From assembly GCA_026413965.1 (NCBI GenBank), contig JAOAJY010000001.1:1-53334 (forward strand): a DNA stretch of 53,334 bases. Direction: 5' to 3'. How positions within the stretch are numbered: the first letter of the stretch is position 1; every line of letters begins with the position of its first letter. The stretch is from Candidatus Micrarchaeota archaeon (GTDB lineage: Archaea; Micrarchaeota; Micrarchaeia; Anstonellales; Anstonellaceae). The notes under the pieces are model-generated. The model was given only the letters and a program-made list of their open reading frames with translations. It was not told where the DNA came from and ran no database searches. A program made the position numbers and the translations under genes. Shown here one piece after another: positions 17,569-53,334 of this stretch.

Positions 17569-18675
17569 TCAGCCTAGCAGGTCCAAGTCCAAATCAGCCT
17601 CTGCCAGGCTTGATGGGGAAGAGGCTGCTTGAAGCTCGTAATTTGGGAACTTGGCGCCTGCAAGAACCACAAGCACGCGGATTGAGGATTTCTTTGCGCT
17701 TTTCTCTATTCTGGCTCCCCAGATTATGTGGGAGGAAGGGTCAATCCTTTTTGATACCTCGCTTACTATAAGCTCGGCTTCCTTCAAAGTCATGTCTTCC
17801 CCGCCAATCACATTGATGAGCGCCCTGTTTGCTGTTGAGACATCCACATCCAAAAGAGGCGAGTTCATGGCAGTGTCCACAGCGATAAGCGCCCTCTGCT
17901 CAGGCTTTGCGTCAACCGAGGCTTCCCCCACCCCAACCACTGCGCAGCCTGCTCCTGAAAGGATGGTGCGCAAGTCGGCAAAGTCAAGATTCACCAACCC
18001 TGCCTTGGTGACAAGCTCGGTTATGCCTTTCACTGCCCCTGCAAGCACCTCATCGCTGACCTTGAAGGCAGTATTCAAGGGCAAATCCGGAACAATTGAG
18101 AGCAGCTTGTCGTTGGGGATGACTATGACCGTGTCTGCGTGCTTCCGCAGCTTCTCCAAGCCCTCAAGCGCATTGTGCATCCTTATTTTGCCTTCTGAGG
18201 AGAAAGGCAGAGTGACCACTGCGATAGTGAGGGCTCCTACTGCTTTCGCCTGCTCAGCAATTATTGCTGCGCTTCCGGTGCCTGTGCCTCCGCCAAGCCC
18301 GCAAGTCACAAAAACCATCATCCCGTCTGAGATAGCTGCTTTTATCTCCTCAACTGATTCTTTTGCTGCAGCCTCGCCCACAGCAGGGTTTGAGCCTGCC
18401 CCCATGCCTTTTGTGGTCTTTTTGCCAAGCAGAATCTTCTTGTCCGCCCGCATTTTGACAAGGTGCTGCACATCGGTATTCATGGCGATAAGCTTTGCGC
18501 CCTCAATCCTCATGTCAAACATCCTTGCCATGGTGTTGCAGCCTGAGCCGCCTGCCCCAACCACATAAATCTTCGGCTTGGACTGCTCAATGAATTTCAA
18601 AAGCTCGGCATCTTCCGGGCTCACTGTCACCCCTTCAGGAATCTGCGACTCTATATTGTCAAGGCCCATGAGCAT
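17569..18675 (-). CDS. ftsZ: Cell division protein FtsZ (FtsZ1)
   Basis: GAGGSGCN, NTD, GAGSNP, GGGTGTG, PF.SEG, NLDFADL. Confidence 0.97.
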   Translation of the reverse strand: MLMGLDNIESQIPEGVTVSPEDAELLKFIEQSKPKIYVVGAGGSGCNTMARMFDMRIEGAKLIAMNTDVQHLVKMRADKKILLGKKTTKGMGAGSNPAVGEAAAKESVEEIKAAISDGMMVFVTCGLGGGTGTGSAAIIAEQAKAVGALTIAVVTLPFSSEGKIRMHNALEGLEKLRKHADTVIVIPNDKLLSIVPDLPLNTAFKVSDEVLAGAVKGITELVTKAGLVNLDFADLRTILSGAGCAVVGVGEASVDAKPEQRALIAVDTAMNSPLLDVDVSTANRALINVIGGEDMTLKEAELIVSEVSKRIDPSSHIIWGARIEKSAKKSSIRVLVVLAGAKFPNYELQAASSPSSLAEADLDLDLLG

Positions 18676-22520: not shown

Positions 22521-23330
22521 ATGGTTAATATCAAATACTATTCTTATGGTTGCGCTGGGCTTGGGATATTGGGGGTGATGGGCACATACATCAGCGCAGG
22601 CAACCCCATACTCCTTTTTGTTTCCAGCTTCATGTGCCTGGTTGGGGCGGCAGGCGCAGTGGCATTCTACAAATACGGCTACTTGCTTGTCCCTCTGCTG
22701 ACTCACCGGGCCAACATAGTGCAGATTATTGAGGGGGGATGGGAGATACCGCCCAGCAACGATGTGGTGGTCAAGAATGTCGGCGGGGTTTATTACGCCT
22801 CAAAATACCTCGGTGTGAGGATTTTTGAGTCAGCCTCAGAGAAGTCTGCGGAAGAAAACATGGTTTATTCCGAGTATTTTGAGAGGGCGATTTCCTCAGT
22901 AAAATATGTGACAAAGTTTGCGATAATGGTCTATATGAAAGACATAACAGAATACAGGAACAGGATAGAGACCAAGCATGCAGAGGCTCAGCTTAGGCTT
23001 GCCCGGGAGCGCGACAAGCCCGAGCCTGATGTTTTGAAGCTTGACCGGTATGAGAAAGAGGTGGCGTCTTGGGAAAACCAGATAAACAAGCTGACTAGGG
23101 GCATAAAGCCCATGGGCTTGGTATCATATGTGATGACTACGGCTGTGGGCGTGAGCAAAGAGGCGGCAATTGCGGCAGCCACTGCGCAGGCAAACGAGCT
23201 GAAAGCCACCATATCAAATGCCTTGAATGTCCAGGTGGAAATCCTGGCTGGGGATGAGATGCTGAGGTGCTTCCAGTGGGAAGTGATGATTCCGCCCACC
23301 CCTGCTGAGCTTGAGCAGGAGCTTTTGTGA
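22521..23330 (+). CDS. Membrane protein (2 N-terminal TMs plus cytoplasmic domain with coiled coil), VirB3/VirB4-N-terminal-like; first gene of ATPase operon
   Basis: Hydrophobic residues about 9-60; coiled-coil insert; directly upstream of the ATPase; family call is inference. Confidence 0.6.
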   Translation: MVNIKYYSYGCAGLGILGVMGTYISAGNPILLFVSSFMCLVGAAGAVAFYKYGYLLVPLLTHRANIVQIIEGGWEIPPSNDVVVKNVGGVYYASKYLGVRIFESASEKSAEENMVYSEYFERAISSVKYVTKFAIMVYMKDITEYRNRIETKHAEAQLRLARERDKPEPDVLKLDRYEKEVASWENQINKLTRGIKPMGLVSYVMTTAVGVSKEAAIAAATAQANELKATISNALNVQVEILAGDEMLRCFQWEVMIPPTPAELEQELL

Positions 23331-23340
23331 AGAGGTTTTT

Positions 23341-24930
23341 ATGGGAAGACTGGTGCTTTCAGACATTGACAATGTGGATGTGGGCAAGCGGAATTTCTTC
23401 GTGCGCCCGCCAGAGCCTCCTGAAGAGGTCTTGATGAGCGACCCCACCAACTCCATCTATATTGGCAAGACCAAAATTTTCCATGTCCCTTTTTACTGGA
23501 CATTCCAGAAAACCACCAACCCGCACATCTGCGTGGTCGGAATAACCGGATCAGGAAAGTCCTATTTTGTCAAGACTTTCCTGACCAGAGCAAGCTTTGT
23601 ATGGGGGACGAATGCCTTCATAATAGACTGGGCAGGGGAATACAAAGACTGGGTAAAGCAGACAGGCGGGAAGGTCATCTCTCTTGGGAAAGGCGCGGCA
23701 ATCAACCTTCTTGACACAGCAGGCATGAAGCCAAATGACAGGATAAAGCAGGTCATGAGGACTCTGGATCTGCTCACAGACGTAAGCCGCTATCCTGAGC
23801 AGCGCAGGCTCACCGAGCTTGCAATAGAGAAAGCCTATGTGAATGCGAAATTCAAGCTGGACTCCAAAATGCAGGTTGATGGGCTAGGCAGGCCCTTGCG
23901 CCCTCCTACGCTGCGCGATGTTCAGAAGATATTGGAGGACATGAGCGAGGCAGGAACTTACGAATTTCCAGCTGAGCTTGAGAATGCGATTTACAGGATA
24001 AGGCAATTCACAAGGGAAGGCGAGGACTTTTTCGCCCAGCAATCCACCATAGACTTGGAAAAGCTCACCAAGATAGGGCTGGTTGACTTGGACCTTTCTG
24101 GCTTGCCGGATGAGACATTCAGGGGGCTTGCCGCCCTGTCAATGCTCCAATTCATAAAGGAGAAGATGCGCGAGGAAGGATGGTCGCCAACCAAGGGCTT
24201 GAAGCTGATGGTGGTCTTGGACGAGGCCTGGAAGATTGCGAAAGAGGAGAACTCCGATGCTGTGATGATTGTGCGCGAAGGAAGGAAATACCAATTCGGG
24301 CTGATTGTAGCCTCACAAAACCCCACAGACATATCCGAAGCCATATTCTCAAATGTGGGAACAACATTCATATTGCGGGTCAAATTTGAAAGGTATCTGG
24401 ACTATCTCCAATCCACCCTGAATTTCTCAGATTATCTGCGGGGAGAGATAGCCAAGATGGGAGTGGGGCAGGCAGCAGTCAATATGGCATTCCAGACGCA
24501 GGTGAATTACCCTGAGACGTTCCTGCTTGAGAAGATAGACGGCGAAGAGCCCATGCAGGAGTTCTTCTTAGACCTTGACCGCGTCCTGACGCGCGAAGAG
24601 ATGGCGATGGAGGGGGCTCAAAAGACAGTCTCCTTTGAGAAAGACGAGCTGAAAAAGAAGCTCCGGACTTACGGGATGGGCGAAGAGCAGGCCGACGAGA
24701 TTGCCCTGCTTTTCAGCAAGAAAGGCAGGCGCATTGAGATTGCATCGTTTGTGGTTCTTTTGTCCCGCTACGGAATTGCGCGCAACAACATCTCAAGCTT
24801 CCTCAAAGAGATTGGGCTGGAAGACAGCGTGGTGGTCAGCGTGCTTGCAAATGCTGATGAGCTTGAGATAAAGCTGGGGAATGATGACATAACAGAGCAC
24901 ATACTGAAAGACACTGAGAAGGCTGAGTGA
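23341..24930 (+). CDS. VirB4/HerA/FtsK-superfamily ATPase (CedB/TraC-like) with extra C-terminal domain
   Basis: NPHICVVGITGSGKS Walker A, IIDWAGEY, VVLDEAW Walker B, REGRKYQFGLIVASQNPTD; GAGGT RBS before ATG 23341. Confidence 0.88.
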   Translation: MGRLVLSDIDNVDVGKRNFFVRPPEPPEEVLMSDPTNSIYIGKTKIFHVPFYWTFQKTTNPHICVVGITGSGKSYFVKTFLTRASFVWGTNAFIIDWAGEYKDWVKQTGGKVISLGKGAAINLLDTAGMKPNDRIKQVMRTLDLLTDVSRYPEQRRLTELAIEKAYVNAKFKLDSKMQVDGLGRPLRPPTLRDVQKILEDMSEAGTYEFPAELENAIYRIRQFTREGEDFFAQQSTIDLEKLTKIGLVDLDLSGLPDETFRGLAALSMLQFIKEKMREEGWSPTKGLKLMVVLDEAWKIAKEENSDAVMIVREGRKYQFGLIVASQNPTDISEAIFSNVGTTFILRVKFERYLDYLQSTLNFSDYLRGEIAKMGVGQAAVNMAFQTQVNYPETFLLEKIDGEEPMQEFFLDLDRVLTREEMAMEGAQKTVSFEKDELKKKLRTYGMGEEQADEIALLFSKKGRRIEIASFVVLLSRYGIARNNISSFLKEIGLEDSVVVSVLANADELEIKLGNDDITEHILKDTEKAE

Positions 24931-24931
24931 T

Positions 24932-25228
24932 ATGGCAAAGACGATATTTTTCACGAAAGAGGAGCTGCGCAGGAAGCTTAGGCTCTACGGGCTGGATGAG
25001 GTGCGCATAGCAGAGATAACCAGCGTTTTTGACAAAAACAACAGGCACATAGATGTTGTGTCATTTGTCATAATGCTTGAAAGGTACGGGATACTGCGGA
25101 CGGACATATCGTCATTTTTGCACGATATTGGGATAGACGAAAGCACCATGATAAACATATTCTCCAAGGCAGATTTCACCAGGCTGGGGATGGGAAACCG
25201 CGAGATCACCCAAGTGGTTCTCGCTTAG
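24932..25228 (+). CDS. Stand-alone paralog of the ATPase C-terminal domain
   Basis: Ungapped alignment to the last ~100 aa of the upstream ATPase; 42/95 identities counted by hand. Confidence 0.85.
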   Translation: MAKTIFFTKEELRRKLRLYGLDEVRIAEITSVFDKNNRHIDVVSFVIMLERYGILRTDISSFLHDIGIDESTMINIFSKADFTRLGMGNREITQVVLA

Positions 25229-25239
25229 GGGGGTAGAAT

Positions 25240-25692
25240 ATGGCAAAGGTGTGCATAATATGCGAAAAGGAGGCCGCGCAAGGGCTTGTGGTTGAGGACG
25301 ACGCAGTCATAATCGCCATACGCAAAGTAAAAAACATGCTTGGGGTAGCGAAAAACAACCAGCTTATGGTCTGCGACCTTTGCGCTGAAAGCTACAAGCG
25401 CAAAAGGGAAAGCTATGAAAGGAACATTGTCATACACACAATAATCGCCGCTCTTGTGCTGCTGGCTTTCATACTTCTGCCGCTGTTCACCTCTGGCTTT
25501 TCCATCTGGTCGCTGGTGATGGGCGTGGTGCTTGCAGGAGTGATTATGGGCTTTTCCTTATTCTCGCATGTCCCAAAAGCATCACAAAAAAAGAATGAAG
25601 AGCCGCCCGCAAAAGAATCTGCTGGCAAGCCTGCGGAAAAGCCTTCAAAAGAAAGGAAGCCGAAGAAAAAAAGAAAATCTAAAGGTGGATGA
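25240..25692 (+). CDS. Zn-ribbon (CxxC...CxxC) protein with two TM helices and basic tail
   Basis: CIIC...CDLC, two hydrophobic helices, K-rich C-terminus; GGGGGT RBS. Confidence 0.75.
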   Translation: MAKVCIICEKEAAQGLVVEDDAVIIAIRKVKNMLGVAKNNQLMVCDLCAESYKRKRESYERNIVIHTIIAALVLLAFILLPLFTSGFSIWSLVMGVVLAGVIMGFSLFSHVPKASQKKNEEPPAKESAGKPAEKPSKERKPKKKRKSKGG

Positions 25693-26474
25693 GATTGCTT
25701 GATTTGGCAAAGCCTGAGCAAAAACAGAATCCTTCTGGCTCTCCGGCAGCCCAGCCTGCAGCCCAGGCTTCGCCCACTGTCAGCGGATTCAGGGTGCAGG
25801 CAAAGAGAACAAAAAGCGCCAAAGAGCTGTCAAACCGGTTCGCGGAGATATCTTTCCTTGAGATGATGATTGAAGGGGAAACACTTTCTGTTCTGAATGT
25901 GGAGTCGCGCGATTTGCGCAAAGAGCCTGCCTTGTTCTCAATCATCCGCTTCAAGCCCGATGTGATTGAATGCGCATACACCTGCCTTGCCAACATGAGC
26001 CCGAAAAAAAGGCAGCTGGAAGTGCTGAGGCACTTTCTCAACATGCTTACACTGGCTGAAGACTGCTATGATGTCCAAATGAAGCAGATATACCAGCTTG
26101 TTGAAAGCTCGTTTGCGGAAATGACCGAGTACGTGTCAACAGACTATGACAAGCTTTATTCGCTTTATGACAACCTCAAAACAGAGCTGAATTCCGCCCA
26201 GAAGAAATTGAAGGAGCTGGGCGAGGCGAACTCTGTCCTCTCCAAGGAGAATTATGAGCTTAAAAGCAGGAACGATGAGCTGACTTTGCGCTTGCGCTCC
26301 CTTGAGACGCTTTCCGACAGCGTCTTGCAGCTGAAAATACAGGAGTGGCTCTCAGAGCACAACGGAGAGATAAACATATCTGATTTCTCCAAAGTCTACA
26401 ATGTCCCTGAGATGCGGGTGGAGCAGATGCTCAACAAAATGGTCACCGAGGGCTACTTGGAGACCAAGGGCTGA
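25689..26474 (+). CDS. Coiled-coil protein with C-terminal winged-helix-like domain
   Basis: Heptad region about aa 150-210, then WLSEHNGEINISDFSKVYNVPEMRVEQMLNKMVTEGYL; ATGA overlap with upstream gene. Confidence 0.75.
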   Translation: MRLLDLAKPEQKQNPSGSPAAQPAAQASPTVSGFRVQAKRTKSAKELSNRFAEISFLEMMIEGETLSVLNVESRDLRKEPALFSIIRFKPDVIECAYTCLANMSPKKRQLEVLRHFLNMLTLAEDCYDVQMKQIYQLVESSFAEMTEYVSTDYDKLYSLYDNLKTELNSAQKKLKELGEANSVLSKENYELKSRNDELTLRLRSLETLSDSVLQLKIQEWLSEHNGEINISDFSKVYNVPEMRVEQMLNKMVTEGYLETKG

Positions 26475-29134
26475 TGGTTCCGATGGAAGAGGAGAAAAAG
26501 GGAAGCCCTGAGCTTTCCAAGCTTCGGATAACCAAGAAAGCCTATGTCTTTGATGTCCGAAAAAAATATTCCATCAGCCGCAACTTTGTGATAAAAAAGG
26601 AGGCGCAAACCCCTGCTGAAAGCATAAAGGAGAAGCTGAAGAGCCTTTTCAAAAAAAAGGAAGGCGAAAAGGAGGAGAAGCCTAAAGCCCAGCCTGCCCC
26701 TCAAAAAGCATTTGGGATAAATCCGGTGATTGCCGGAATACTTGTGGTGCTTGCGATTGTTGTTGGCAGCTTTCTTTTTGTGGTCTGGAGGATGCAGCAG
26801 GAGCCAGAGGAGCCTTCTGCGCCTGCCCAAAAAGGCTACTTTGTTGGCAAGGCAGACTACGAAATAAAGCAAGCAGAGATTTTGACCTCCCCGTCAGGCG
26901 AGGATCTTGGGAGAGTCGCATATTATAGGATAGGCTACACCGCAGAAAACTTAAGCCAGCTGAAATTCAGCCTAAAGCTTTATTCCCAAAAGCCCACCAC
27001 GCAAGTTTTCCTTTTGGAATACGCAAAGGATGGGGCAGACACTTATCCGATATTCAGAAAGCACCTGCTTGAAAATCTCAAAAGCCGCGGGATTCCCATA
27101 AGCGAGATAACCATAGAGAAGCTGGCAGAGCTTCCTGGAGGGGCGACCGTGATAGTGCCCACTGGCTACTTCCCAAAGGAGCTTTTCGGCAAAGACAGCC
27201 ATTTCAGCTTTGAGGACTTGCTTGAGCGTGGCAACAACATAGTATATATAGGATTCCAGGTTGACAGGGTGCTCAACCGGGACGGCCTGACTGAGCCTGT
27301 CGCCTCCACGAACCTCCAATTCAGCAAAGCCAAACTCTCCTCCACGGACGGATTTAGGCTTTTTGACGCGCAATATTCTGCCTCAGGAACCGGAAACCTA
27401 TACTCTGCTGGCCAGATTTACGGCTCTGTTAGCGTGGTTAAGTCCTCAAAAGGAGGAGGTGCGCTGGTCATACTTCCCCAAAGCCTTGACGGAGGCTGGC
27501 GCGGGGACCAGCGAATGACCAGCGGAGAAGTTGCAGCAGGAGATATTGCCAGGCTGATTGAGGAGCAGCGATGGCTCTTGCCAATAGCCTCGGCAGAGGC
27601 TTCTGCTGAGCTTGGCGGCGAAGAAAAGCAGGCAGGCAGCCTTGAGCTTTATAGCTCAGCATTCACAGCAAACCGAGCCTACGCACAAATTTCAGCTGAA
27701 GCTGAGGATACTGGGGGGGCAAAAACAAGGAAAGTGGAGGTCGTGGAGCTGGAAAAAGCTCCGAAAGGGGAGATGCAGCCAAGGGAGCCTGTGGCAGTGC
27801 CCTACTACCTTTCTGGGCAGCTGACTCGCCTGAACATCCAGCTGAGGGAAGACAGCTCCAAGCCTGTGAAGCTTTTTGTAAAGCTTTACAGGAACGGCTC
27901 TTTGGCTCAGGAAGAAGAGCTGGAGCTTGGGATGACCAATCCAACAGCAGAAAAGCCCAAAGACATACCCGTGAATGTTGAGCCAGGCACCTATCTTGTC
28001 CGGGTGGAAAGCCGGGAAGGTAAAGTGTACGCCCAAACTTTTGTCCGAGTGACAGGGCTGGAAGCTGGCATCAGGTCAGCCAACTGGCAGAACCGGACTT
28101 TTGTCTTTTACTTTTCGGCAGGCAATCAGTCAGTCAACCCAAGGACTGTTGAAATATCCATGGATGGCAAGAACTGGAAAAAATTCACTTCCTCACAATA
28201 CCAATTTTCTGGAGGGGAGACCCAAATTGCCTATAGCTATCCAGAAAGCATAACCCCAGGCAACCACACTTTCCAGATAATCATAGGAAGCTGGAGCAAG
28301 CAGATAGTCCAAGAATACCGCCCTACGAGGTATCCTTGGGACAACCCATTATTTGTGATTCTTGGGGTTCTTTCAATCCTTATATTTGCGGTCGGGATGT
28401 TTTTGCGCAGGCCCGAGACTTTGAAATATGGGCTGGATGTGCCTGACTTTCCTCCGATTTCTGCGATAAAGATACCTGTCAAAAGGGAAGCAGTCATGCA
28501 AATATTCAACGATGTGAACGCAAGCTATTCGTGGCAATACATGCCTCTCCGCCCAGAGGAGATAAAAAACGGCTTCCGGCGGCTAACCTACAACGGCAAG
28601 CCCATACTTATAGGGGACTTCAATTTGGAGAGGGTGCTTTTCAAGCTGAAAGAGGAGGGGAAAGTGAAGGAGGAGCTGGGATACTATGGGCTGAGCCAAT
28701 GGGAATCCCAAAGCAAGCACACCATAAGATATCTTGCGATATACCGGATAATGAGGAACGTCTTTGTCAACAGTGCAGTGCGCTTCTCCAAGCTTGACGC
28801 CATTCCTGAATGCGATGTGAAAGCAATTGTGGGCAAGGAGGAGATATACTTCCACATAATGGAGGAGCCTTTCTCTGCTGAGGACAAAACATATCCAAAT
28901 GGAGCAGTCTGCAGGGGGGCGGAAACCATAGTCCATCGGGCGCTTGCCACTGCCAAAAAAGGAACCACAATAATTGTATTCAGGACTGAGGAGGAGAGGG
29001 ATTCATTCTTTGACAGCCTCGCCGCGCCTTCCAAGCTGGCGGTGGCTTTGAAGATGGAGATAAGCAACCGGAACATTTTCCTGCTTCCTGTCAAGAACGC
29101 AATTTCGGCATTCTTGAAAGGCGTGGTCAAATAA
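26474..29134 (+). CDS. Large membrane protein: two TMs flanking a large extracellular beta-rich region, cytoplasmic C-terminal domain
   Basis: TM at about aa 85-105 and about 625-645; N-x-S/T sequons (NLS, NGS, NRT, NQS, NHT) between them; TGATG coupling. Confidence 0.8.
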   Translation: MVPMEEEKKGSPELSKLRITKKAYVFDVRKKYSISRNFVIKKEAQTPAESIKEKLKSLFKKKEGEKEEKPKAQPAPQKAFGINPVIAGILVVLAIVVGSFLFVVWRMQQEPEEPSAPAQKGYFVGKADYEIKQAEILTSPSGEDLGRVAYYRIGYTAENLSQLKFSLKLYSQKPTTQVFLLEYAKDGADTYPIFRKHLLENLKSRGIPISEITIEKLAELPGGATVIVPTGYFPKELFGKDSHFSFEDLLERGNNIVYIGFQVDRVLNRDGLTEPVASTNLQFSKAKLSSTDGFRLFDAQYSASGTGNLYSAGQIYGSVSVVKSSKGGGALVILPQSLDGGWRGDQRMTSGEVAAGDIARLIEEQRWLLPIASAEASAELGGEEKQAGSLELYSSAFTANRAYAQISAEAEDTGGAKTRKVEVVELEKAPKGEMQPREPVAVPYYLSGQLTRLNIQLREDSSKPVKLFVKLYRNGSLAQEEELELGMTNPTAEKPKDIPVNVEPGTYLVRVESREGKVYAQTFVRVTGLEAGIRSANWQNRTFVFYFSAGNQSVNPRTVEISMDGKNWKKFTSSQYQFSGGETQIAYSYPESITPGNHTFQIIIGSWSKQIVQEYRPTRYPWDNPLFVILGVLSILIFAVGMFLRRPETLKYGLDVPDFPPISAIKIPVKREAVMQIFNDVNASYSWQYMPLRPEEIKNGFRRLTYNGKPILIGDFNLERVLFKLKEEGKVKEELGYYGLSQWESQSKHTIRYLAIYRIMRNVFVNSAVRFSKLDAIPECDVKAIVGKEEIYFHIMEEPFSAEDKTYPNGAVCRGAETIVHRALATAKKGTTIIVFRTEEERDSFFDSLAAPSKLAVALKMEISNRNIFLLPVKNAISAFLKGVVK

Positions 29135-47372: not shown

Positions 47373-48008
47373 TCACCAGTAGCAAGATGAGCCCCCTGTG
47401 CAGACTCCGCATGGAATGACAAGCGGGGTTTGTCCAACAAATCTTCTAGACAGCACGGAATTTCCTTTTATTATATCATAATCAAAGCCGAAGTCCTGAA
47501 CAGACACGACACCTTCGCCATCAGTGCTACAGACAGTATCTGTGGCAAACATCTGATTGGGAGGCAACTCGGCAGAGCCGGAAGAACCCGGAACAAAAGC
47601 TATAGAGTATTGGCAGTTGCTTCCGTAGCTTCCAAAGCATATTTCTCTTCCTGCTGGTATGTAAATAGAAGAGATGGATTGCGTGATTCCGTTTGCAGAC
47701 CTGTAGGTGTTAAGAACGTTGTTGCCTGCAACTATGGCGCGCAGCCTTATCGGGTCTGCCCCAGTATTTTTTACCCTAAGGTAAGGATAGTGCGAAGTGC
47801 TTGATGGATTGCGGTAAATGGATGATGCGACAATTGCAAGAGGAGAGGCGCTTGACCAGTAAGACTGGCTTTGCGAAAGCTTCACGTCACTAGTCCTACC
47901 AAAAACATCTCCAAGGAGAGCAATTCCAACCAAAGCAACTACAAGAATGACTGCAAGCAAAACAAGATATTCGGTTGCTCCCTGACCGAGAAGCTTTCTG
48001 CTGCTCAA
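47373..48008 (-). CDS. Class III signal peptide (type IV pilin-like) protein
   Basis: RKLLG|QGATEYLVLLAVILVVALV prepilin motif; Cys-rich C-terminus; AGGTGA RBS with TTG start. Confidence 0.85.
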   Translation of the reverse strand: MSSRKLLGQGATEYLVLLAVILVVALVGIALLGDVFGRTSDVKLSQSQSYWSSASPLAIVASSIYRNPSSTSHYPYLRVKNTGADPIRLRAIVAGNNVLNTYRSANGITQSISSIYIPAGREICFGSYGSNCQYSIAFVPGSSGSAELPPNQMFATDTVCSTDGEGVVSVQDFGFDYDIIKGNSVLSRRFVGQTPLVIPCGVCTGGSSCYW

Positions 48009-48070: not shown

Positions 48071-49057
48071 TTAGATTTTCCTTTGCTTTAGAGTGTATGA
48101 AGATGAAAGCCCTGTGAAGATGGCGATTGCCTCTATCTTTTTGTGGTAAGATGGCTCGGTCCTGGCGCCATAAATCACATTAGCATCAGGAGAGACTTGC
48201 TGCGTGAGCAGCTCGCCTAGCCTTGTGGCTTCCCCCAAAGTCAAATCCTCTCCGCCTGTGATGTGAAGCAGCGCGCTTTTGGCGCCTTCAATGTTCGCAT
48301 CCAAAAGGCGGTTTTTGAGTATGGCCTCAGCAGCATCCTCCACTTTGGAATACCCTGAAGCCTCTCCAACCGCAATCAAGGATATGCCGCCTTCCTCCAT
48401 CACCGCGCGCAAATCCATGAAATCCAGGTTGAGAAGAGATGGCTCCAGGATGGTCTTGGATATGCCTCTTATGGCTTTTGCCACAATCTCATCAAGGAGC
48501 ATGAAGGACTGCTCTATTGGAAGATTGGGGGCATAATCCACCAGCCTGTTGTTGTCAATAAGCACCACTGTATCTGCTGACTGCCTCATCCTCTCTATCC
48601 CATGGAGGGCTTTTGCCTGCCTGCCTTTTTCTATCGCAAAGGGATAGGTGCAGAAGGCAACCACCAAAGCTCCTTTCTTCTTCGCAATCTCCGCAATCAC
48701 AGGCGCAGCGCCCGTTCCTGTCCCTCCGCCCATGCCGCAGGCTATGAAAACTATATCTTTGCCAGAAAGGTGCGCTGCTATCGCCTTTCTTGAGAAAAGC
48801 GCAGCCCTCTCTGCAATTTCAGGGTGCCCTCCTGCCCCAAGACCCTTGGTTATGGAAGGCCCAAGCAGGCAATGTGTCGCTTTTTTTCCAACGAGGGAGA
48901 GGTGCTTTTTGTCTGTGTTGAAGGCAAAAAGGCTTGCTTCCTCCAGCCCCATCTTTATCAGCCTATTTATTGTGTTGCAGCCTGCTCCTCCGACGCCGCA
49001 GACGGCGATAGACGGAACGCTTTCCTCATCCATGCCAACACCCAAAAACAAATCCAT
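48071..49057 (-). CDS. ftsZ: Second, divergent FtsZ-family GTPase
   Basis: GVGGAGCN, NTD, GLGAGG.P, GMGGGTGTG, PF..E, DNNRL, NLDFMDL. Confidence 0.92.
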   Translation of the reverse strand: MDLFLGVGMDEESVPSIAVCGVGGAGCNTINRLIKMGLEEASLFAFNTDKKHLSLVGKKATHCLLGPSITKGLGAGGHPEIAERAALFSRKAIAAHLSGKDIVFIACGMGGGTGTGAAPVIAEIAKKKGALVVAFCTYPFAIEKGRQAKALHGIERMRQSADTVVLIDNNRLVDYAPNLPIEQSFMLLDEIVAKAIRGISKTILEPSLLNLDFMDLRAVMEEGGISLIAVGEASGYSKVEDAAEAILKNRLLDANIEGAKSALLHITGGEDLTLGEATRLGELLTQQVSPDANVIYGARTEPSYHKKIEAIAIFTGLSSSYTLKQRKI

Positions 49058-49677: not shown

Positions 49678-50061
49678 TCATGGCTTTTCAAAAATCGGGA
49701 TTTCCACTGGCAAATCTTCTGCCACTGCTTGCGGATAATCCGATTGGGCAAACTCCTCTAGCGCAGCCATGTCCTTTGGGCTGATTTCAGCCTTTGCGGC
49801 TGGCTCTTGCTTTGCCGGCTTTCCTTCATCCTTTGGACCAGCTTCTGGCTTTTGCTCCTCTTTCGCAGGAGCAGGCTCTTCTTTTTTCTCCTCAACCTTT
49901 GGCTGCTCTTTCTCCTGCTGCTTGCCAGTCTGTTGCTCTTTTTTTGGCTCTTGCAGCTGCTGTTGCTGAGGCGCCTGCCTTTGCTGCTCTTGCGCGCAGC
50001 CGTATATGAAAGGCAAGGCCAGAAGGCAGATTGCAAGGGCGACTGACATAAGGGCTTTCAT
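49678..50061 (-). CDS. Putative lipoprotein with Q/E/K/P low-complexity stalk
   Basis: MKALMSVALAICLLALPFIYGC lipobox-like signal; GAGGTGA RBS. Confidence 0.75.
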   Translation of the reverse strand: MKALMSVALAICLLALPFIYGCAQEQQRQAPQQQQLQEPKKEQQTGKQQEKEQPKVEEKKEEPAPAKEEQKPEAGPKDEGKPAKQEPAAKAEISPKDMAALEEFAQSDYPQAVAEDLPVEIPIFEKP

Positions 50062-50065
50062 ATTT

Positions 50066-51070
50066 TCACCTCGATGAAGATAGCGCTTCTTTCACAAGCG
50101 AGGCTGCTTCTGCCAGCAGAGACCTCAGCTTTTGCGCAACCTCTTCGTCATACACGCTCGACTTTGAAACAAGAGCGTTTGCCTCGTCCAGCTTTGCCTG
50201 AGCTTTTGCAAGGGCATCTGGCGAGCCTTTTGCTTTGGCCTTGTCCAGGATTGACTGCAATCTTGCGATTTGCCCTTTGGCATTCTCAAGGTATTTTTCT
50301 TTCGGCACACAAGAGGAGCCGATGCATCTCTTTTCCAAAGTCTCTTTCACCTTTTCTGCTTGGCGCGAAGCGATTGCTGCCCTGAGGGCTTCATTCTTCT
50401 CTTCCTGCTGCGCCCTCTGGCTGCCCAAAGCCATCAAAGCCTCGCTTCTGCAGGATGCCATCTGCTGCTTAAGCTCTAAATAAGCGCCTTTCATGGCTGC
50501 AAGCTGCTCCTCTGGCAGGGTTTTTGCCAGATTGGCGATTGCCTTGCTTGCCTCAGCCACGCTTTTCTGCGCCTCTTTCATGGCTTTTGCATAAGCTCCC
50601 TCATCTCCGCTTGCCGCAGCCATAGCCAAAGCCTCTTTTGTTTGCTGGAGCTTTTGCAGGTGCGCCTCAAAATCCGGGGCAGGAGAAGCGGCTGACATCT
50701 GAGAAGCCAGCCCTATTGCAAAATCAAGCTGGCAGAAAGCGTAATTCTGCCTTGCGCGCAAAGTTTCAGCAGCCTTCTCCTTCTTCATCTTCATGCTCAA
50801 GTCCCCCATTTTTTCCTTCTCTGGAGCAGGAAGGACAGCCCTGCCAGACTGAACAGCTGAAGCAGAATCAGGATTCGCCTTGCCTGGCGCTGCTGCCGGG
50901 TTCAAATCCGGGTTTTGCGGCGCTCCTGTTGGCCCTGCCGAAGTTGGTGAGCCTGCTGCTGGGCTTGGATAGCCTGCCGGACCTGTTGGGTCAGGATAAG
51001 GCTCGGCAAAAGCCACAGAGAATGCTAAAAGCAGCATCGCTCCTAAAAACATGCTTGTGCTCCTCATCAT
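50066..51070 (-). CDS. Secreted protein, Pro/Ala-rich N-terminus and long alpha-helical/coiled-coil body
   Basis: Signal peptide ending AFA; GGAGGTG RBS. Confidence 0.78.
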   Translation of the reverse strand: MMRSTSMFLGAMLLLAFSVAFAEPYPDPTGPAGYPSPAAGSPTSAGPTGAPQNPDLNPAAAPGKANPDSASAVQSGRAVLPAPEKEKMGDLSMKMKKEKAAETLRARQNYAFCQLDFAIGLASQMSAASPAPDFEAHLQKLQQTKEALAMAAASGDEGAYAKAMKEAQKSVAEASKAIANLAKTLPEEQLAAMKGAYLELKQQMASCRSEALMALGSQRAQQEEKNEALRAAIASRQAEKVKETLEKRCIGSSCVPKEKYLENAKGQIARLQSILDKAKAKGSPDALAKAQAKLDEANALVSKSSVYDEEVAQKLRSLLAEAASLVKEALSSSR

Positions 51071-51181: not shown

Positions 51182-51865
51182 TTATGGACGGGCGGAAATG
51201 ACGCTGCCTAAAGACATCAAGAGAACCGATAGGAAGAAGAAAAAAAGCAAAATCACCAGTATCGCAAAGATTATTAACGGCGCCACCACGACAAATGCTG
51301 CTTTGAGGGAAGAAAGCTGGTGAGCTTCCTTAATCAGCTTGTATTGGCTGTACATGGAATAGACGCTTATCAACAAAATTGGTATGTTGAAGATTATGCC
51401 AATTAGAGGCAGAAGAGCTAGGACTTGGAAAGGCAGCTGCAGCAAAGCCGAGCCGCCAATAAGCAAAGAAAGAACATATGTTTGCTGGGAAAATTTTCCT
51501 TTGCCACCCACAATCTTTGCAAAAGCAAATAGTATTGCCGATAGGATAAACCCCACGACAAAGACGGATACGGGGAATAAGACAACTGAGGTCAACGCGG
51601 ATAGGGCGCCACTCATATCGCCACTAAGAGCAGAGATGGTAAAGCCTGCTACGCCTATGGCAGCACCGGTAAGCAATCCATAAGCAACAAAATTTTTGGC
51701 TGCGCCCAAGGCAGTAGCATTTTCTGCCTCTATTTTGAATACTGCCTCAGGCCTGAAAAATGCGGTTATCCATTTTGTGGTTGTGGATGAAAAAGGAAAA
51801 CCGTTGGCCACATTCAAGAACCTGCCTTCAATATTCCCTGGCGCACCATATCTGTTTTCTGTCAT
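51182..51865 (-). CDS. Yip1-family membrane protein
   Basis: W..AFFRPEAVF, five TMs, AKIVGGKGKF, AHQLSSLKA; start revised to ATG 51865 behind GGAGGT. Confidence 0.85.
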   Translation of the reverse strand: MTENRYGAPGNIEGRFLNVANGFPFSSTTTKWITAFFRPEAVFKIEAENATALGAAKNFVAYGLLTGAAIGVAGFTISALSGDMSGALSALTSVVLFPVSVFVVGFILSAILFAFAKIVGGKGKFSQQTYVLSLLIGGSALLQLPFQVLALLPLIGIIFNIPILLISVYSMYSQYKLIKEAHQLSSLKAAFVVVAPLIIFAILVILLFFFFLSVLLMSLGSVISARP

Positions 51866-51870
51866 CCAAT

Positions 51871-52005
51871 CTACCTCCCATTCAGTTTCGCATAGCATTT
51901 TCCGCAGTAGCTATGCACAAATCCAGAGGAATCTATGCTCTGCCTCTGGCTGAAGCGGGTAAGCTCAGCTCGGCAAATTTCGCACAACAAATAGTCATTA
52001 TACAT
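51871..52005 (-). CDS. 44-aa CxxC/CxxC zinc-finger microprotein (not in ORF track)
   Basis: Translated by hand: MYNDYLLCEICRAELTRFSQRQSIDSSGFVHSYCGKCYAKLNGR; AGGTG RBS; ends 5 nt before Yip1 start. Confidence 0.75.
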   Translation of the reverse strand: MYNDYLLCEICRAELTRFSQRQSIDSSGFVHSYCGKCYAKLNGR

Positions 52006-52076
52006 CCGAGCACCTAAACCTAATGGTGATTCTCTGCAAAGAAATAAAAGAATATATCTGCCCTAAAAGCAGAGGC

Positions 52077-52180
52077 GCTGGGGTCGCATAATCCGGTATT
52101 GCGGCAGGTTGCTAACCTGTTGAAGGGAAACCTTCGTGTGAGTTCAATTTCCAGATGGAGAGCAAATCTCACCCCCGGCG
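52077..52180 (+). tRNA. tRNA-Ser(GCT) with 18-nt intron in the T-loop (52148-52165)
   Basis: Acceptor GCTGGGG/CCCCGGC plus G73, anticodon stem GCAGG/CCTGT with GCT at 52111-13, long variable arm GAAGG-GAAA-CCTTC, T-stem GTGAG/CTCAC; T-run terminator follows. Confidence 0.93.
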
Positions 52181-52208
52181 CTTTTTTTTGGGAAAGCCAG
52201 CATAAATA

Positions 52209-52254
52209 TTTTAAATACAACACGACAATACGAATGGCAGAGCCTTAGAGGCTC
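52209..52254 (+). promoter_or_regulatory. TATA box (TTTTAAATA) and 5' hairpin (GAGCCT-tag-AGGCTC) of pilin transcript
   Basis: TATA at 52209-17; hairpin at 52240-54 near the expected start site; GGAGG RBS downstream. Confidence 0.6.
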
Positions 52255-52271
52255 GGAATTGGAGGGATGAA

Positions 52272-52601
52272 ATGAAAAGGATTCTATTGGCTTTGCTTGC
52301 TATAAGCGCTCTTTTGGCAGCTGCTTCCTCGCCTCTTACAAGAGTGAGTGCGGCTGTTTCTAACCTTTGCAGCGAGCTTAAGGGATTGCTTCCCGTTGTC
52401 TCAATGCTTATGGTGGTGGTTGCGGGAGTGATTTATGCGGCAGGGCAGATAATGGGCGCTGAGACTCGCGCAAGGGCGAATGTTTGGGCAACTGCCGCAT
52501 TGGTTGGGGCATTGATTGGAGTGCTGATATATGCTGTTGCGCCTCCTGTCCTGCAAACAATATACAGCGGAAGTTCGCAGGGAAGCGACTTTAACTGCTG
52601 A
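52272..52601 (+). CDS. VirB2/TrbC-like pilin, copy 1
   Basis: Signal peptide, amphipathic helix with LC, two hydrophobic helices joined by a short basic loop GAETRARA, terminal Cys. Confidence 0.8.
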   Translation: MKRILLALLAISALLAAASSPLTRVSAAVSNLCSELKGLLPVVSMLMVVVAGVIYAAGQIMGAETRARANVWATAALVGALIGVLIYAVAPPVLQTIYSGSSQGSDFNC

Positions 52602-52613
52602 TGGGGGAGAAAT

Positions 52614-52967
52614 ATGAAAAAATTGGCATTGACTTTGGCTCTTGTTGCTGCTGCCGCATTTGCCACATCCCCTCCTCTTGGGACAGGTGGCAGCGTACGG
52701 ATGGCAATTCAAGACCTCTGCTGCGAGCTTAAAGGATTGCTTCCAGTGGCATCCATGCTCATGATAGTGGTTGCGGGAGTGATTTATGCGGCAGGGCAGA
52801 TAATGGGCGCTGAGACTCGCGCAAGGGCGAATGTTTGGGCAACTGCCGCATTGGTTGGGGCATTGATTGGAGTGCTGATATATGCTGTTGCGCCTCCTGT
52901 CCTGGACACCATCTACTCCCAAAGCGGCACCGCAACAGGCCAAGTATCTTGCGTCTCAGCTTGCTGA
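52614..52967 (+). CDS. VirB2/TrbC-like pilin, copy 2
   Basis: Same architecture; LCC near N-terminus and two C-terminal Cys. Confidence 0.8.
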   Translation: MKKLALTLALVAAAAFATSPPLGTGGSVRMAIQDLCCELKGLLPVASMLMIVVAGVIYAAGQIMGAETRARANVWATAALVGALIGVLIYAVAPPVLDTIYSQSGTATGQVSCVSAC

Positions 52968-52995
52968 TTTTTTTATTTTTCTTTTTTTTTATTTT
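52968..52995 (+). terminator. Oligo-T terminator after pilin 2
   Basis: Long T tracts directly after TGA. Confidence 0.6.
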
Positions 52996-53055
52996 AATCC
53001 ACTTTTTACCACATATTTTTTAAATTCTTCGCGCTCTAAAAATACAGGTGGAAAA

Positions 53056-53334
53056 ATGAGGAAGGCAGCAGCATTCATCCTTCTGCTTTCTTTTCTTGCG
53101 CATGCCTCTTCACCTTTAAGCACGGTGAAGCTTGCGGCAAGCATGCTGTGCCATGACGCAAAAAGCCTGCTTCCAGTGGTCTGCATGCTTATGACTGTTT
53201 TTGCCGGAGTGATTTATGCGGCAGGGCAGATAATGGGCGCTGAGACTCGCGCAAGGGCGAATGTTTGGGCAACTGCCGCATTGGTTGGGGCATTGATTGG
53301 AGTGCTGATATATGCTGTTGCGCCTCCTGTCCTG
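53056..53334 (+). CDS. VirB2/TrbC-like pilin, copy 3 (3'-truncated by window end; not in ORF track)
   Basis: MRKAAAFILLLSFLAHASSPLSTVKLAASMLCHDAKSLLPVVCMLMTVFAGVIYAAGQIMGAETRARANVWATAALVGALIGVLIYAVAPPVL; AGGTGG RBS. Confidence 0.8.
   Translation, partial: MRKAAAFILLLSFLAHASSPLSTVKLAASMLCHDAKSLLPVVCMLMTVFAGVIYAAGQIMGAETRARANVWATAALVGALIGVLIYAVAPPVL

Follow-up and report, generated by a model that had tools for sequence, protein, structure and literature searches.

How can three adjacent genes be identical to the letter in their middle and clearly different at both ends, and what kind of protein might be built in this way? The question is raised by the tandem genes pil1, pil2 and pil3, which lie on the same strand at the 3' end of a stretch of 53,334 nt of DNA from a Candidatus Micrarchaeota archaeon. 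This whole stretch, called the window in the following, comprises positions 1-53334 of contig C11 (JAOAJY010000001.1) of a genome of 28 contigs and 770,713 nt, which is 87% complete. The array probably encodes paralogous subunits of a TrbC/VirB2-like pilus or surface filament, with a core that has been homogenised by gene conversion and ends that have had their own histories. We assign a probability of about 0.7 to this reading. The three genes and the three copies of their core are arranged as follows, the two parts of pil3 being separated by a scaffold gap:

52272-52601, forward strand: pil1, open reading frame for a TrbC/VirB2-like pilin paralogue of 109 amino acids
52614-52967, forward strand: pil2, open reading frame for a paralogue of 117 amino acids, 12 nt 3' of pil1
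53056-53334, forward strand: N-terminal part and core of pil3, open reading frame still open at 53334
C11:53435-53511 and C11:53512-53571, forward strand: remainder of pil3 in the sequence past the gap, namely core positions 58-134, and the tail with the stop codon
52425-52553, forward strand: core copy 1, from the three-way DNA alignment
52776-52904, forward strand: core copy 2, from the three-way DNA alignment
53206-53334, forward strand: core copy 3, from the three-way DNA alignment

The pil1 product consists of a Sec-type signal peptide, an N-terminal segment (N-segment) with one cysteine, two hydrophobic helices and a tail with one cysteine. The pil2 gene has its own ribosome-binding-like purine run, and its product carries a CC doublet in the N-segment and two cysteines in the tail. 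Signal peptide, N-segment and tail are the parts that vary among the three genes. The invariant core begins halfway along helix 1, runs through the basic loop with its motif GAETRARANVW and extends to the end of helix 2, the helices being taken from an AlphaFold2 model of pil2.

The core has a length of 129 nt, i.e., 43 codons (bases 154-282 of pil1; repeat family D1), and the exact run shared by pil1 and pil2 is even 138 nt long, beginning 9 nt 5' of core copy 2. The original prediction had claimed 43 shared codons with zero differences, synonymous sites included, and the three-way alignment confirmed this, with silent differences at 0/43 codons for each pair of genes. Of the 21 codons preceding the core, those that encode the same residue in a gene pair differ silently in 6/17, 7/13 and 5/12 cases for the three pairs, which is 35-54%. 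Two dispersed paralogues are present in the same genome, and 15/33 and 12/31 of their same-residue codons differ from the core:

C21 near 87.6 kb and C11 near 190.3 kb: dispersed paralogues of the array genes

The identity of the core thus exceeds what protein conservation would yield, because the same-residue codons just upstream differ silently and none of those inside the core does.

Identity to the letter in a repeated sequence might have been produced by the assembly, if the cores are slightly different in the cells and one consensus was written into all copies by a short-read assembler or scaffolder. Several facts are in favor of this explanation. A scaffold gap lies inside the array, and the underlying data, a single DNA run of 2014 that is labelled hot-spring metagenome (run X1), were present and compared as Logan contigs, not as reads. 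Contigs drop rare variants and report short pieces poorly, and a minority variant core could escape. In addition, one of the core pieces had 2.1x instead of 3x the flank depth, and 8 of 18 compared contigs were less than 99% alike, their differences not being itemised. However, this independent set of contigs contains a single core path, and no differing letter between the core copies is listed in the Logan contigs of this one run. The contigs stop exactly at the core edges, as predicted by the 31-mer map of the assembly, which also reproduces the break between the core pieces, where the sequence has 12 k-mers in common with the paralogue at C11:190469. The depths were 23.1, 20 and 22.5 for the flanks and 66.7 and 47.2 for the core pieces, i.e., the core is covered at 2.1-3.0x the flank depth. 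The same core sequence is entered from all three flanks and also from the piece past the gap. Moreover, tandem cores in unrelated assemblies are 95-98% identical, with exact runs of 89-141 nt, and near-identity is thus a habit of the family. An assembly artefact is therefore quite improbable, and the observed identity of 129 nt is real. The contigs imply half-depth alleles at 52424 and 52775 (at the ends of contigs 1, 2, 4 and 5), the last base before the three-way core, at which pil3 differs from pil1 and pil2. These alleles may represent a polymorphic edge of a conversion tract. Altogether, the contigs of run X1 fit truly identical copies, together with some heterogeneity of the population at the tract edge.

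It had been proposed that the window ends at a repeat-induced contig break and that further copies might follow. The first proposal has to be modified, and the second could not be upheld. Contig C11 has a length of 219,173 nt and continues beyond the window, which stops at a 100-N scaffold gap (53335-53434) inside pil3 and within the core of the array. Past the gap, core positions 58-134 follow with 100% identity, and then a distinct tail and a stop codon near C11:53571. A PAC2-like gene and then a superoxide dismutase gene are found 3' of the array. The N-terminal part of pil3 and the tail past the gap belong to one gene, because the last array gene of a related genome (G010), which is also located beside the PAC2-like gene, carries both types, and because a complete gene on the metagenome contig L070 (L070:310-663), which follows a pil2-type tail, carries both as well. 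Most likely, the gap separates the ends of two contigs whose sequences overlap in the repeat. The orthologues and the k-mer depth indicate that the array holds three genes and no more, because the core piece of the last 90 nt has 2.1x the flank depth and a fourth copy would require about 3.8x.

How did the core become identical? Comparison with the relatives shows that the core and the ends of pil3 have different affiliations. Both ends of pil3 have their closest counterpart in the last array gene of G010 (72% identity in the N flank and 65% in the tail), with which the core shares 74%. The respective values for the L070 orthologue are 75% in the N flank, 67% in the tail and 75% in the core, in contrast to the 100% core identity of pil3 to its own neighbours. 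The same trend, less complete, was found in related genomes, in which tandem cores are 71-98% identical within a genome and contain exact runs of up to 141 nt, and in which residue changes specific to one genome recur in the cores of its paralogues. On the metagenome contigs L068 and L070, tandem cores are 95% identical, and between the two contigs the identity is 84-88%, the orthologous pair included. A nearest-neighbour test was performed with 46 complete pilin genes (open reading frames that start with ATG and have at least 40 residues in front of the loop motif) from the loci compared in 19 genomes of the genus, which do not comprise every paralogue. For the 40 genes from multi-copy genomes, the nearest neighbour was a copy of the same genome in 30 cases for the core DNA, 13 for the N flank, 7 for the N-segment and 4 for the tail, compared to a chance expectation of 2.4. 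Cores thus cluster by genome and ends by orthologue.

A recent tandem duplication without conversion, after which positive selection rapidly rewrote only the ends of young copies, would also leave a common core between differing ends. The N flanks of pil1 and pil2 are closest to one another (73-81%), and these two might be a fairly recent pair; also, the copy number varies from 2 to 8 across the genus. However, silent differences are abundant up to the core edge and absent inside, a pattern that selection on the protein ends cannot yield, and G010 and L070 contain orthologues of both the N-terminal part and the tail of pil3 at the corresponding position. Therefore, the gene predates these splits, yet its core is identical to those of its neighbours. 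Duplication alone is very improbable, even more so than an artefact. Gene conversion is favored over both, because cores group by genome and ends by orthologue. The pattern, as far as it can be read from the sequences, points to gene conversion confined to the core, for which the present genome would be an extreme case, and we regard this as well supported. The proposal that the core is homogenised by gene conversion, which had been made from the window alone, has gained support from the step in silent differences from 35-54% to zero, from the contrast between orthologous ends and a paralogous core in pil3, and from the relatives. In the present genome, the second half of helix 1, the loop and helix 2 behave together as one unit of concerted evolution, and the related genomes show this to a lesser degree.

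Identical cores could also serve another purpose, namely a programmed cassette variation, in which recombination through the core regularly re-pairs the ends or swaps the expressed copy, leading to surface variation for host range or virus escape. In Neisseria, gene conversion takes place between pilin copies with shared constant segments, one expressed type IV pilin gene (pilE) being accompanied by silent partial cassettes (pilS). Conversion diversifies the variable part in Neisseria, whereas in the present array the genes are complete and VirB2-like, and it is the constant part that is homogenised. A silent-cassette system of the pilE/pilS type, with one expression site and promoterless partial donors, was considered and rejected, as all three copies are complete: each of them (3/3) begins with a start codon and a signal peptide, preceded by a ribosome-binding-like run, and the DNA contains two promoter-like boxes. 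For a re-pairing of ends, some signs were found in the relatives. Among 85 protein pairs with tails that are at least 75% identical, 14 have N-segments with at most 35% identity, and conversely 13 of 85 pairs with like N-segments have unlike tails. Two N-segments that have their own tails on L068 reappear with a shared third tail in the proteins P0006 and P0049, and P0039 and P0086, which are encoded on one contig of 133 kb, have identical N-segments and different tails. The half-depth alleles of pil1 and pil2, which coincide with the 5' edge of the core and with the base at which pil3 differs, would also be compatible with an exchange of ends. However, most of the discordant proteins are encoded on contigs of 0.5-1.2 kb, where chimeric joins are expected; these pairs are explained equally well by chimeras, because an assembler can jump through near-identical cores. 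A single protein, P0015, is involved in 9 of the 14 discordant pairs with like tails. Several pairings of N-segment and tail are stably co-inherited between species, silent cassettes are absent, and a PHI-type test (values below) was not significant. Shuffling of N-segments and tails is therefore suggested by these data and confounded by possible chimeric assemblies, and a programmed variation seems doubtful.

The ends differ in sequence and have one feature in common. The original prediction had stated that the cysteine counts of the two ends match and had suggested that the cysteines pair, and both are in line with the family. The counts of N-segment and tail are 1 + 1 for pil1 and 2 + 2 for pil2, and pil3 has one additional cysteine inside helix 1. 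The cysteines C36 and C113 (pil2 numbering) are invariant in 115 aligned sequences. Counting was performed with 162 of 166 distinct sequences, those without the motif, with less than 40 residues before it, or with tails of less than 5 or more than 30 residues being dropped. One cysteine in the N-segment and one in the tail were found in 132 sequences, (2,2) in 13, (2,1) in 11, (1,2) in 5 and (0,1) in 1. The two counts covary, with a Fisher odds ratio of 31 and a p-value of 3e-9, a calculation that ignores the relatedness of the sequences. The CC doublet occurs in 16 sequences of seven N-segment groups, and 13 of these 16 (six groups) have a two-cysteine tail, compared to 5 of the other 145 sequences; for the nine-member group, this is based on the four N-segments listed. 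Eight other N-segments with two cysteines have the extra cysteine further upstream, and all of them are combined with one-cysteine tails. This distribution supports disulfides between N-segment and tail, predicted to be one per subunit and two in the CC forms.

What kind of protein is homogenised in the core and possibly stapled at its ends? The layout of the family consists of a cleavable signal peptide followed by two hydrophobic helices, which are joined by a short basic loop that is invariant in the family alignment. A small-x-small motif in front of the N-segment was taken by visual inspection as the cleavage site. The AlphaFold2 model of pil2 (predicted local distance difference test score 83.9) has a helix of residues 2-17, which is the signal peptide, a hairpin of residues 26-63 and 66-101, and a loose tail. 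The Pfam family TrbC (PF04956, cut-off 27.9 bits) matches pil1 with an E-value of 2.8e-5 (24.7 bits) and pil2 with 8.1e-5 (23.2 bits). Of 115 aligned relatives (E <= 1e-3), 39 are matched by TrbC and 15 by T4SS_pilin, and two other families have one member each. In precomputed Pfam annotation PF04956 is assigned to some relatives, and the Atlas clusters of the family are archaeal and have been automatically named TrbC/VIRB2 family. A search of the PDB with the alignment profile retrieved TrwL, the pilin of R388, as the best match, with a non-significant E-value of 0.075. The products of pil1-pil3 thus appear to be distant TrbC/VirB2-like pilins of the type IV secretion kind. Both ends would point outward and the loop would line the lumen, as in solved VirB2-type pili, as far as these are described in the accessible text of PMC9905601. 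The genes had been called pilins without further distinction, which, judging by Pfam and the matches of the relatives, probably holds in the sense of TrbC/VirB2-like pilins and not in that of type IV pilins. The latter, i.e., archaeal type IV pilins or archaellins with a class III signal peptide, were rejected, as a Sec-type signal peptide, about 15-20 polar residues and two further helices are present instead, and no pilin or archaellin family of Pfam matches pil1-pil3.

Candidate motors for such a pilus are encoded elsewhere in the genome, one of them in the window:

23311-24930, forward strand: CedB/VirB4/HerA-like ATPase, 27 kb 5' of the array, candidate motor, best NCBIfam match CedB

The match of this ATPase to CedB has an E-value of 1.4e-21 and 76.7 bits, versus a cut-off of 700, and the Pfam families DUF87, AAA_10 and P-loop_TraG match as well. 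It is present in 41/41 relatives, with 83-90% identity within the genus. For a second ATPase near C11:127.3-128.8 kb CedB is also the best NCBIfam match (E 4.4e-23). In both cases CedB is followed by CedD and VirB4-type models, ahead of HerA, with all scores far below the cut-offs, and a direct sequence search of solved structures gives HerA first. The two CedB-like ATPases are candidate motors, and perhaps they drive the putative pilus, the role of which might be host contact or DNA uptake.

The first ATPase gene is part of a run of six overlapping or abutting genes (22521-29134, forward strand), which includes small membrane proteins. Besides the ATPase, its products are a protein of 269 aa that starts with two membrane helices, a zinc-ribbon protein that also has two of them, a coiled-coil protein and a membrane protein of 886 aa without a family. 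The run also encodes a 97-aa protein that has 43% identity to the C-terminal 100 residues of the ATPase and is kept in relatives. An NCBIfam search at E <= 10 with the other five genes of the run yielded nothing above noise.

A number of results weigh against the proposed filament with a converted core. None of the TrbC matches reaches the Pfam cut-off, and pil3 has no TrbC match and is matched weakly by PF18895 (T4SS_pilin) alone (19.0 bits versus a cut-off of 26.6). A Foldseek search with the pilin model gave nothing at E <= 0.001, the archaeal conjugative pilin 8dfu being at rank 30 with TM scores of 0.50/0.66. VIA-align scored 8dft and 8dfu with Z 6.6 and 6.5, respectively, which is a tie with hundreds of helical hairpins (Z 6.4-7.3), ESCRT-III included. 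The VirB4 N-domain (PF03135) and TrbL/VirB6 (PF04610) have no match in the 87%-complete genome, nothing resembling a type IV secretion system (T4SS) adjoins the array, and the filament is a prediction from the genes. As to gene conversion, the PHI-type test for mosaicism or incompatibility was not significant for the arrays of the genomes G005, G017 and G019 (p 0.51, 0.29 and 1.0). The low depth of one core piece, the half-depth alleles, the comparison of contigs of one run and the neglect of relatedness in the Fisher test, all described above, belong to the same list.

Some of these results would also suit proteins that are not filament subunits, e.g., membrane-resident two-helix hairpins that anchor or display the outer ends, or small membrane proteins with another role, whose likeness to VirB2 would then be convergent or vestigial. 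No secretion machine adjoins the array, VirB4 N-domain and VirB6 matches are missing, and all family matches of pil1-pil3 are below threshold. The domain is fused to about 580 residues of cysteine-rich repeats in some relatives, and a paralogue in the present genome has a cysteine-rich extension, which would suit a membrane anchor too, and the basic loop is consistent with the positive-inside rule. On the other hand, TrbC/VirB2 and T4SS_pilin are the only families matched by more than one of the 115 relatives, the top profile match among solved structures is a conjugative pilin, and two CedB/VirB4-like ATPases are conserved in all 41 relatives. In addition, VirB2 arrays distant from virB4 are also common in Patescibacteria, according to the accessible text of PMC12102498. 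A non-filament role therefore seems unlikely, and subunits of a pilus or surface filament remain the preferred interpretation.

The fused forms deserve a description of their own. Two adjacent genes of the genome G030 (contig C3; L059:3411-5561 and L059:5647-7713, both on the reverse strand) encode proteins of 716 and 688 aa, in which the same pilin domain is followed by the approximately 580 residues of cysteine-rich repeats, which suggests that the tail is an attachment site for large modules. The dispersed paralogue of the present genome at G000:C21:87622-88101 (forward strand) encodes 159 aa and has a cysteine-rich C-terminal extension of 50 residues. The arrays of G019 and G016 end with similar extensions.

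How widespread is the family, and where is it encoded? It was found in 41/41 related Micrarchaeota genomes and, at E <= 1e-5, in 200 of 301 genomes sampled from the phylum, a count that contains one unpublished genome, G219, and becomes 199/300 without it. The source names of close relatives are Candidatus Anstonellaceae, Micrarchaeia and Anstonella stagnisolia. Mostly, the genes form tandem arrays of 2-8 genes, with 7, 5 and 4 complete copies in G005, G017 and G019, respectively. The array precedes the same PAC2-like gene in 9 of 12 loci of relatives, and argininosuccinate synthase, carbonic anhydrase and eRF1 genes are located upstream in five to six of those nine. In the present genome the 5' neighbours are a tRNA-Ser gene and then a divergent gene for a five-helix Yip1-domain protein; a Yip1-like gene occurs in 3/12 of the relatives' loci. 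Archaeal genes in the window comprise eRF1, two FtsZ genes, an S-layer protein gene and a PAC2-like gene. The array locus is a stable chromosomal site. A tRNA-linked mobile island, which might be suspected with a tRNA gene just upstream, was rejected, as synteny of the locus with housekeeping genes is maintained throughout the genus. A tblastn search with pil2 against 72,556 plasmids had no match at E <= 1.

Clustered VirB2-like genes are known from bacteria. Strains of Anaplasma and Ehrlichia contain 8-15 clustered virB2 paralogues, which encode a signal peptide and two hydrophobic helices, and the diversity of Anaplasma VirB2 is concentrated in one region before the N-terminal cysteine and another near the C-terminus (PMC3556328). 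The clustering of paralogues and the layout of the variable regions are thus the same as in the present array, as far as the text on these arrays was accessible. However, the bacterial arrays lie beside virB4-2 in a recognisable T4SS, and the archaeal array lies among housekeeping genes with no machine nearby; also, a letter-identical core and a grouping of cores by genome were not encountered in the accessible text on the Anaplasma arrays (PMC3556328). For Patescibacteria (candidate phyla radiation), the accessible text describes 441 arrays of 2-11 VirB2-like genes with PF04956/PF18895-type profiles, which are often away from virB4 and have been proposed to aid host adaptation (PMC12102498). 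These are also ultra-small, host-dependent cells with multi-gene VirB2-like arrays. In contrast to the Patescibacteria arrays, in which identity averages 25% and reaches a maximum of 54% in the accessible part of that source, the copies of the present array are 70-74% identical over the matched part, have an identical core of 43 codons and conserved cysteines at both ends, and occupy a fixed syntenic locus.

In archaea, the Ced and Ted systems have VirB2-like two-helix pilins, CedA1 and TedC, together with VirB4-like ATPases, and the Sec signal peptide of TedC is cleaved (PMC9905601, accessible text). A two-helix pilin is also predicted here, and CedB is the best NCBIfam match of both ATPases of this genome. 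However, there is no sequence match to the Ced and Ted pilins, and the structural match is non-specific (Z 6.5-6.6). The Ted pilin gene is followed by a gene for a VirB6-like seven-helix protein, which is absent at this array, the Ced and Ted loci are drawn with a single pilin gene, and in the accessible text no cysteine pair was found and the word "disulfide" is absent (PMC9905601). Membership in Ced/Ted, i.e., a pilin gene beside a CedA/TedA gene with six to seven helices and CedB/TedB, was rejected, the neighbours being the tRNA-Ser, Yip1-domain and PAC2-like genes. With the cyclic conjugative pilins RP4 TrbC and IncH TrhA, as far as the sources on them were accessible, the predicted protein would share a two-helix pilin with covalently joined ends. 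Their ends are linked through a peptide bond, for which a dedicated peptidase is responsible, whereas a disulfide is proposed here from the conserved and covarying cysteines. Literature searches, which did not cover the supplements of PMC9905601 and PMC12102498 that possibly list homologues, retrieved no publication about pilins of this kind from Micrarchaeota or DPANN. In the accessible text of the Mia14 paper type IV pili alone are mentioned, and a term search for pili in the Micrarchaeum harzensis paper had no result. The identical core with differing ends is apparently an archaeal variant of a bacterial theme that has not yet been described in archaea.

Signals for expression were found by direct reading of the sequence around the genes:

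52202-52217, forward strand: A/T-rich TATA-like box, about 55-70 nt 5' of pil1
52968-53055, forward strand: 88-nt spacer between pil2 and pil3, with T-runs, a TATA-like box (about 53015-53026) and then a purine run

The box at 52202-52217 is likely the promoter of pil1-pil2. The T-runs of the spacer are terminator-like for archaea, and its elements may function accordingly, in which case pil1-pil2 and pil3 would be separate transcription units.

Several observations were made on the DNA 5' of the array. A probable tRNA-Ser(GCU) gene (52077-52181, forward strand) ends 90 nt 5' of pil1, with a T-run behind it, and contains an insertion of 16-20 nt in the region of the T-arm (about 52144-52165). 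ARAGORN called a tRNA-Ser(gct) only after removal of the 16-20 nt, the unedited gene being missed by ARAGORN and Rfam, which had zero matches on 51800-53334 and 51800-52400. Contigs from other organisms of run X1 match the 5' part of this gene. At 49678-51070 (reverse strand), two neighbouring low-complexity proteins are encoded that look secreted and have no family, one of 127 aa that is rich in Q, E, K and P, and one of 334 aa that is rich in alanine and lysine and possibly forms a coiled coil; homologues occur in only one to two of 12 loci of relatives. A 211-aa open reading frame (47373-48008, reverse strand), 4 kb from the VirB2-like array, has a weakly archaellin- or type IV pilin-like N-terminus (PF01917, E 3.5e-4, below the cut-off). 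The two FtsZ paralogues (17569-18675 and 48071-49057, both on the reverse strand) are encoded in the same 53-kb window of a very small genome.

How the array might be maintained can be outlined as follows. Non-reciprocal recombination, i.e., gene conversion, between the tandem copies would repeatedly overwrite the core, and conversions that reach the ends would be lost, either by lack of homology or by selection. The outcome would be a common scaffold for packing, for facing the lipid and for facing the lumen, which fits one assembly machine, combined with outer surfaces that differ. Unequal exchange through the core would alter the copy number, which is 2-8 in the genus, and occasionally re-pair the ends. 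N-segment and tail would be tied by the predicted disulfides, a staple that would be a non-peptide counterpart of the head-to-tail closure in cyclic conjugative pilins. A more far-reaching proposal joins all of these elements into a conjugation-type pilus at a fixed locus with interchangeable subunits, in which conversion keeps the scaffold, unequal exchange re-pairs the stapled ends and shifts the copy number, and the resulting surface variation serves host attachment or DNA uptake in these host-dependent cells, driven by the universally conserved CedB-like ATPases and not by a classical T4SS. As a whole this proposal is tentative, and we consider it unlikely that all of its parts hold.

The array seems to be a clean natural example of region-limited concerted evolution, in which the part for packing, lipid and lumen contact is homogenised and the exposed ends stay distinct. 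In practice, such loci interrupt short-read assemblies, and public protein sets may contain many chimeric pilin models. The replacement of pilin cyclisation by a disulfide is a structural idea that can be tested. The array bears on the question of how DPANN archaea, Micrarchaeota among them, contact their hosts and exchange material. Because the family occurs in 200/301 genomes of the phylum and in 41/41 close relatives, is present in multiple copies and has an invariant loop, it would be a strong candidate for a major surface organelle of these archaea.

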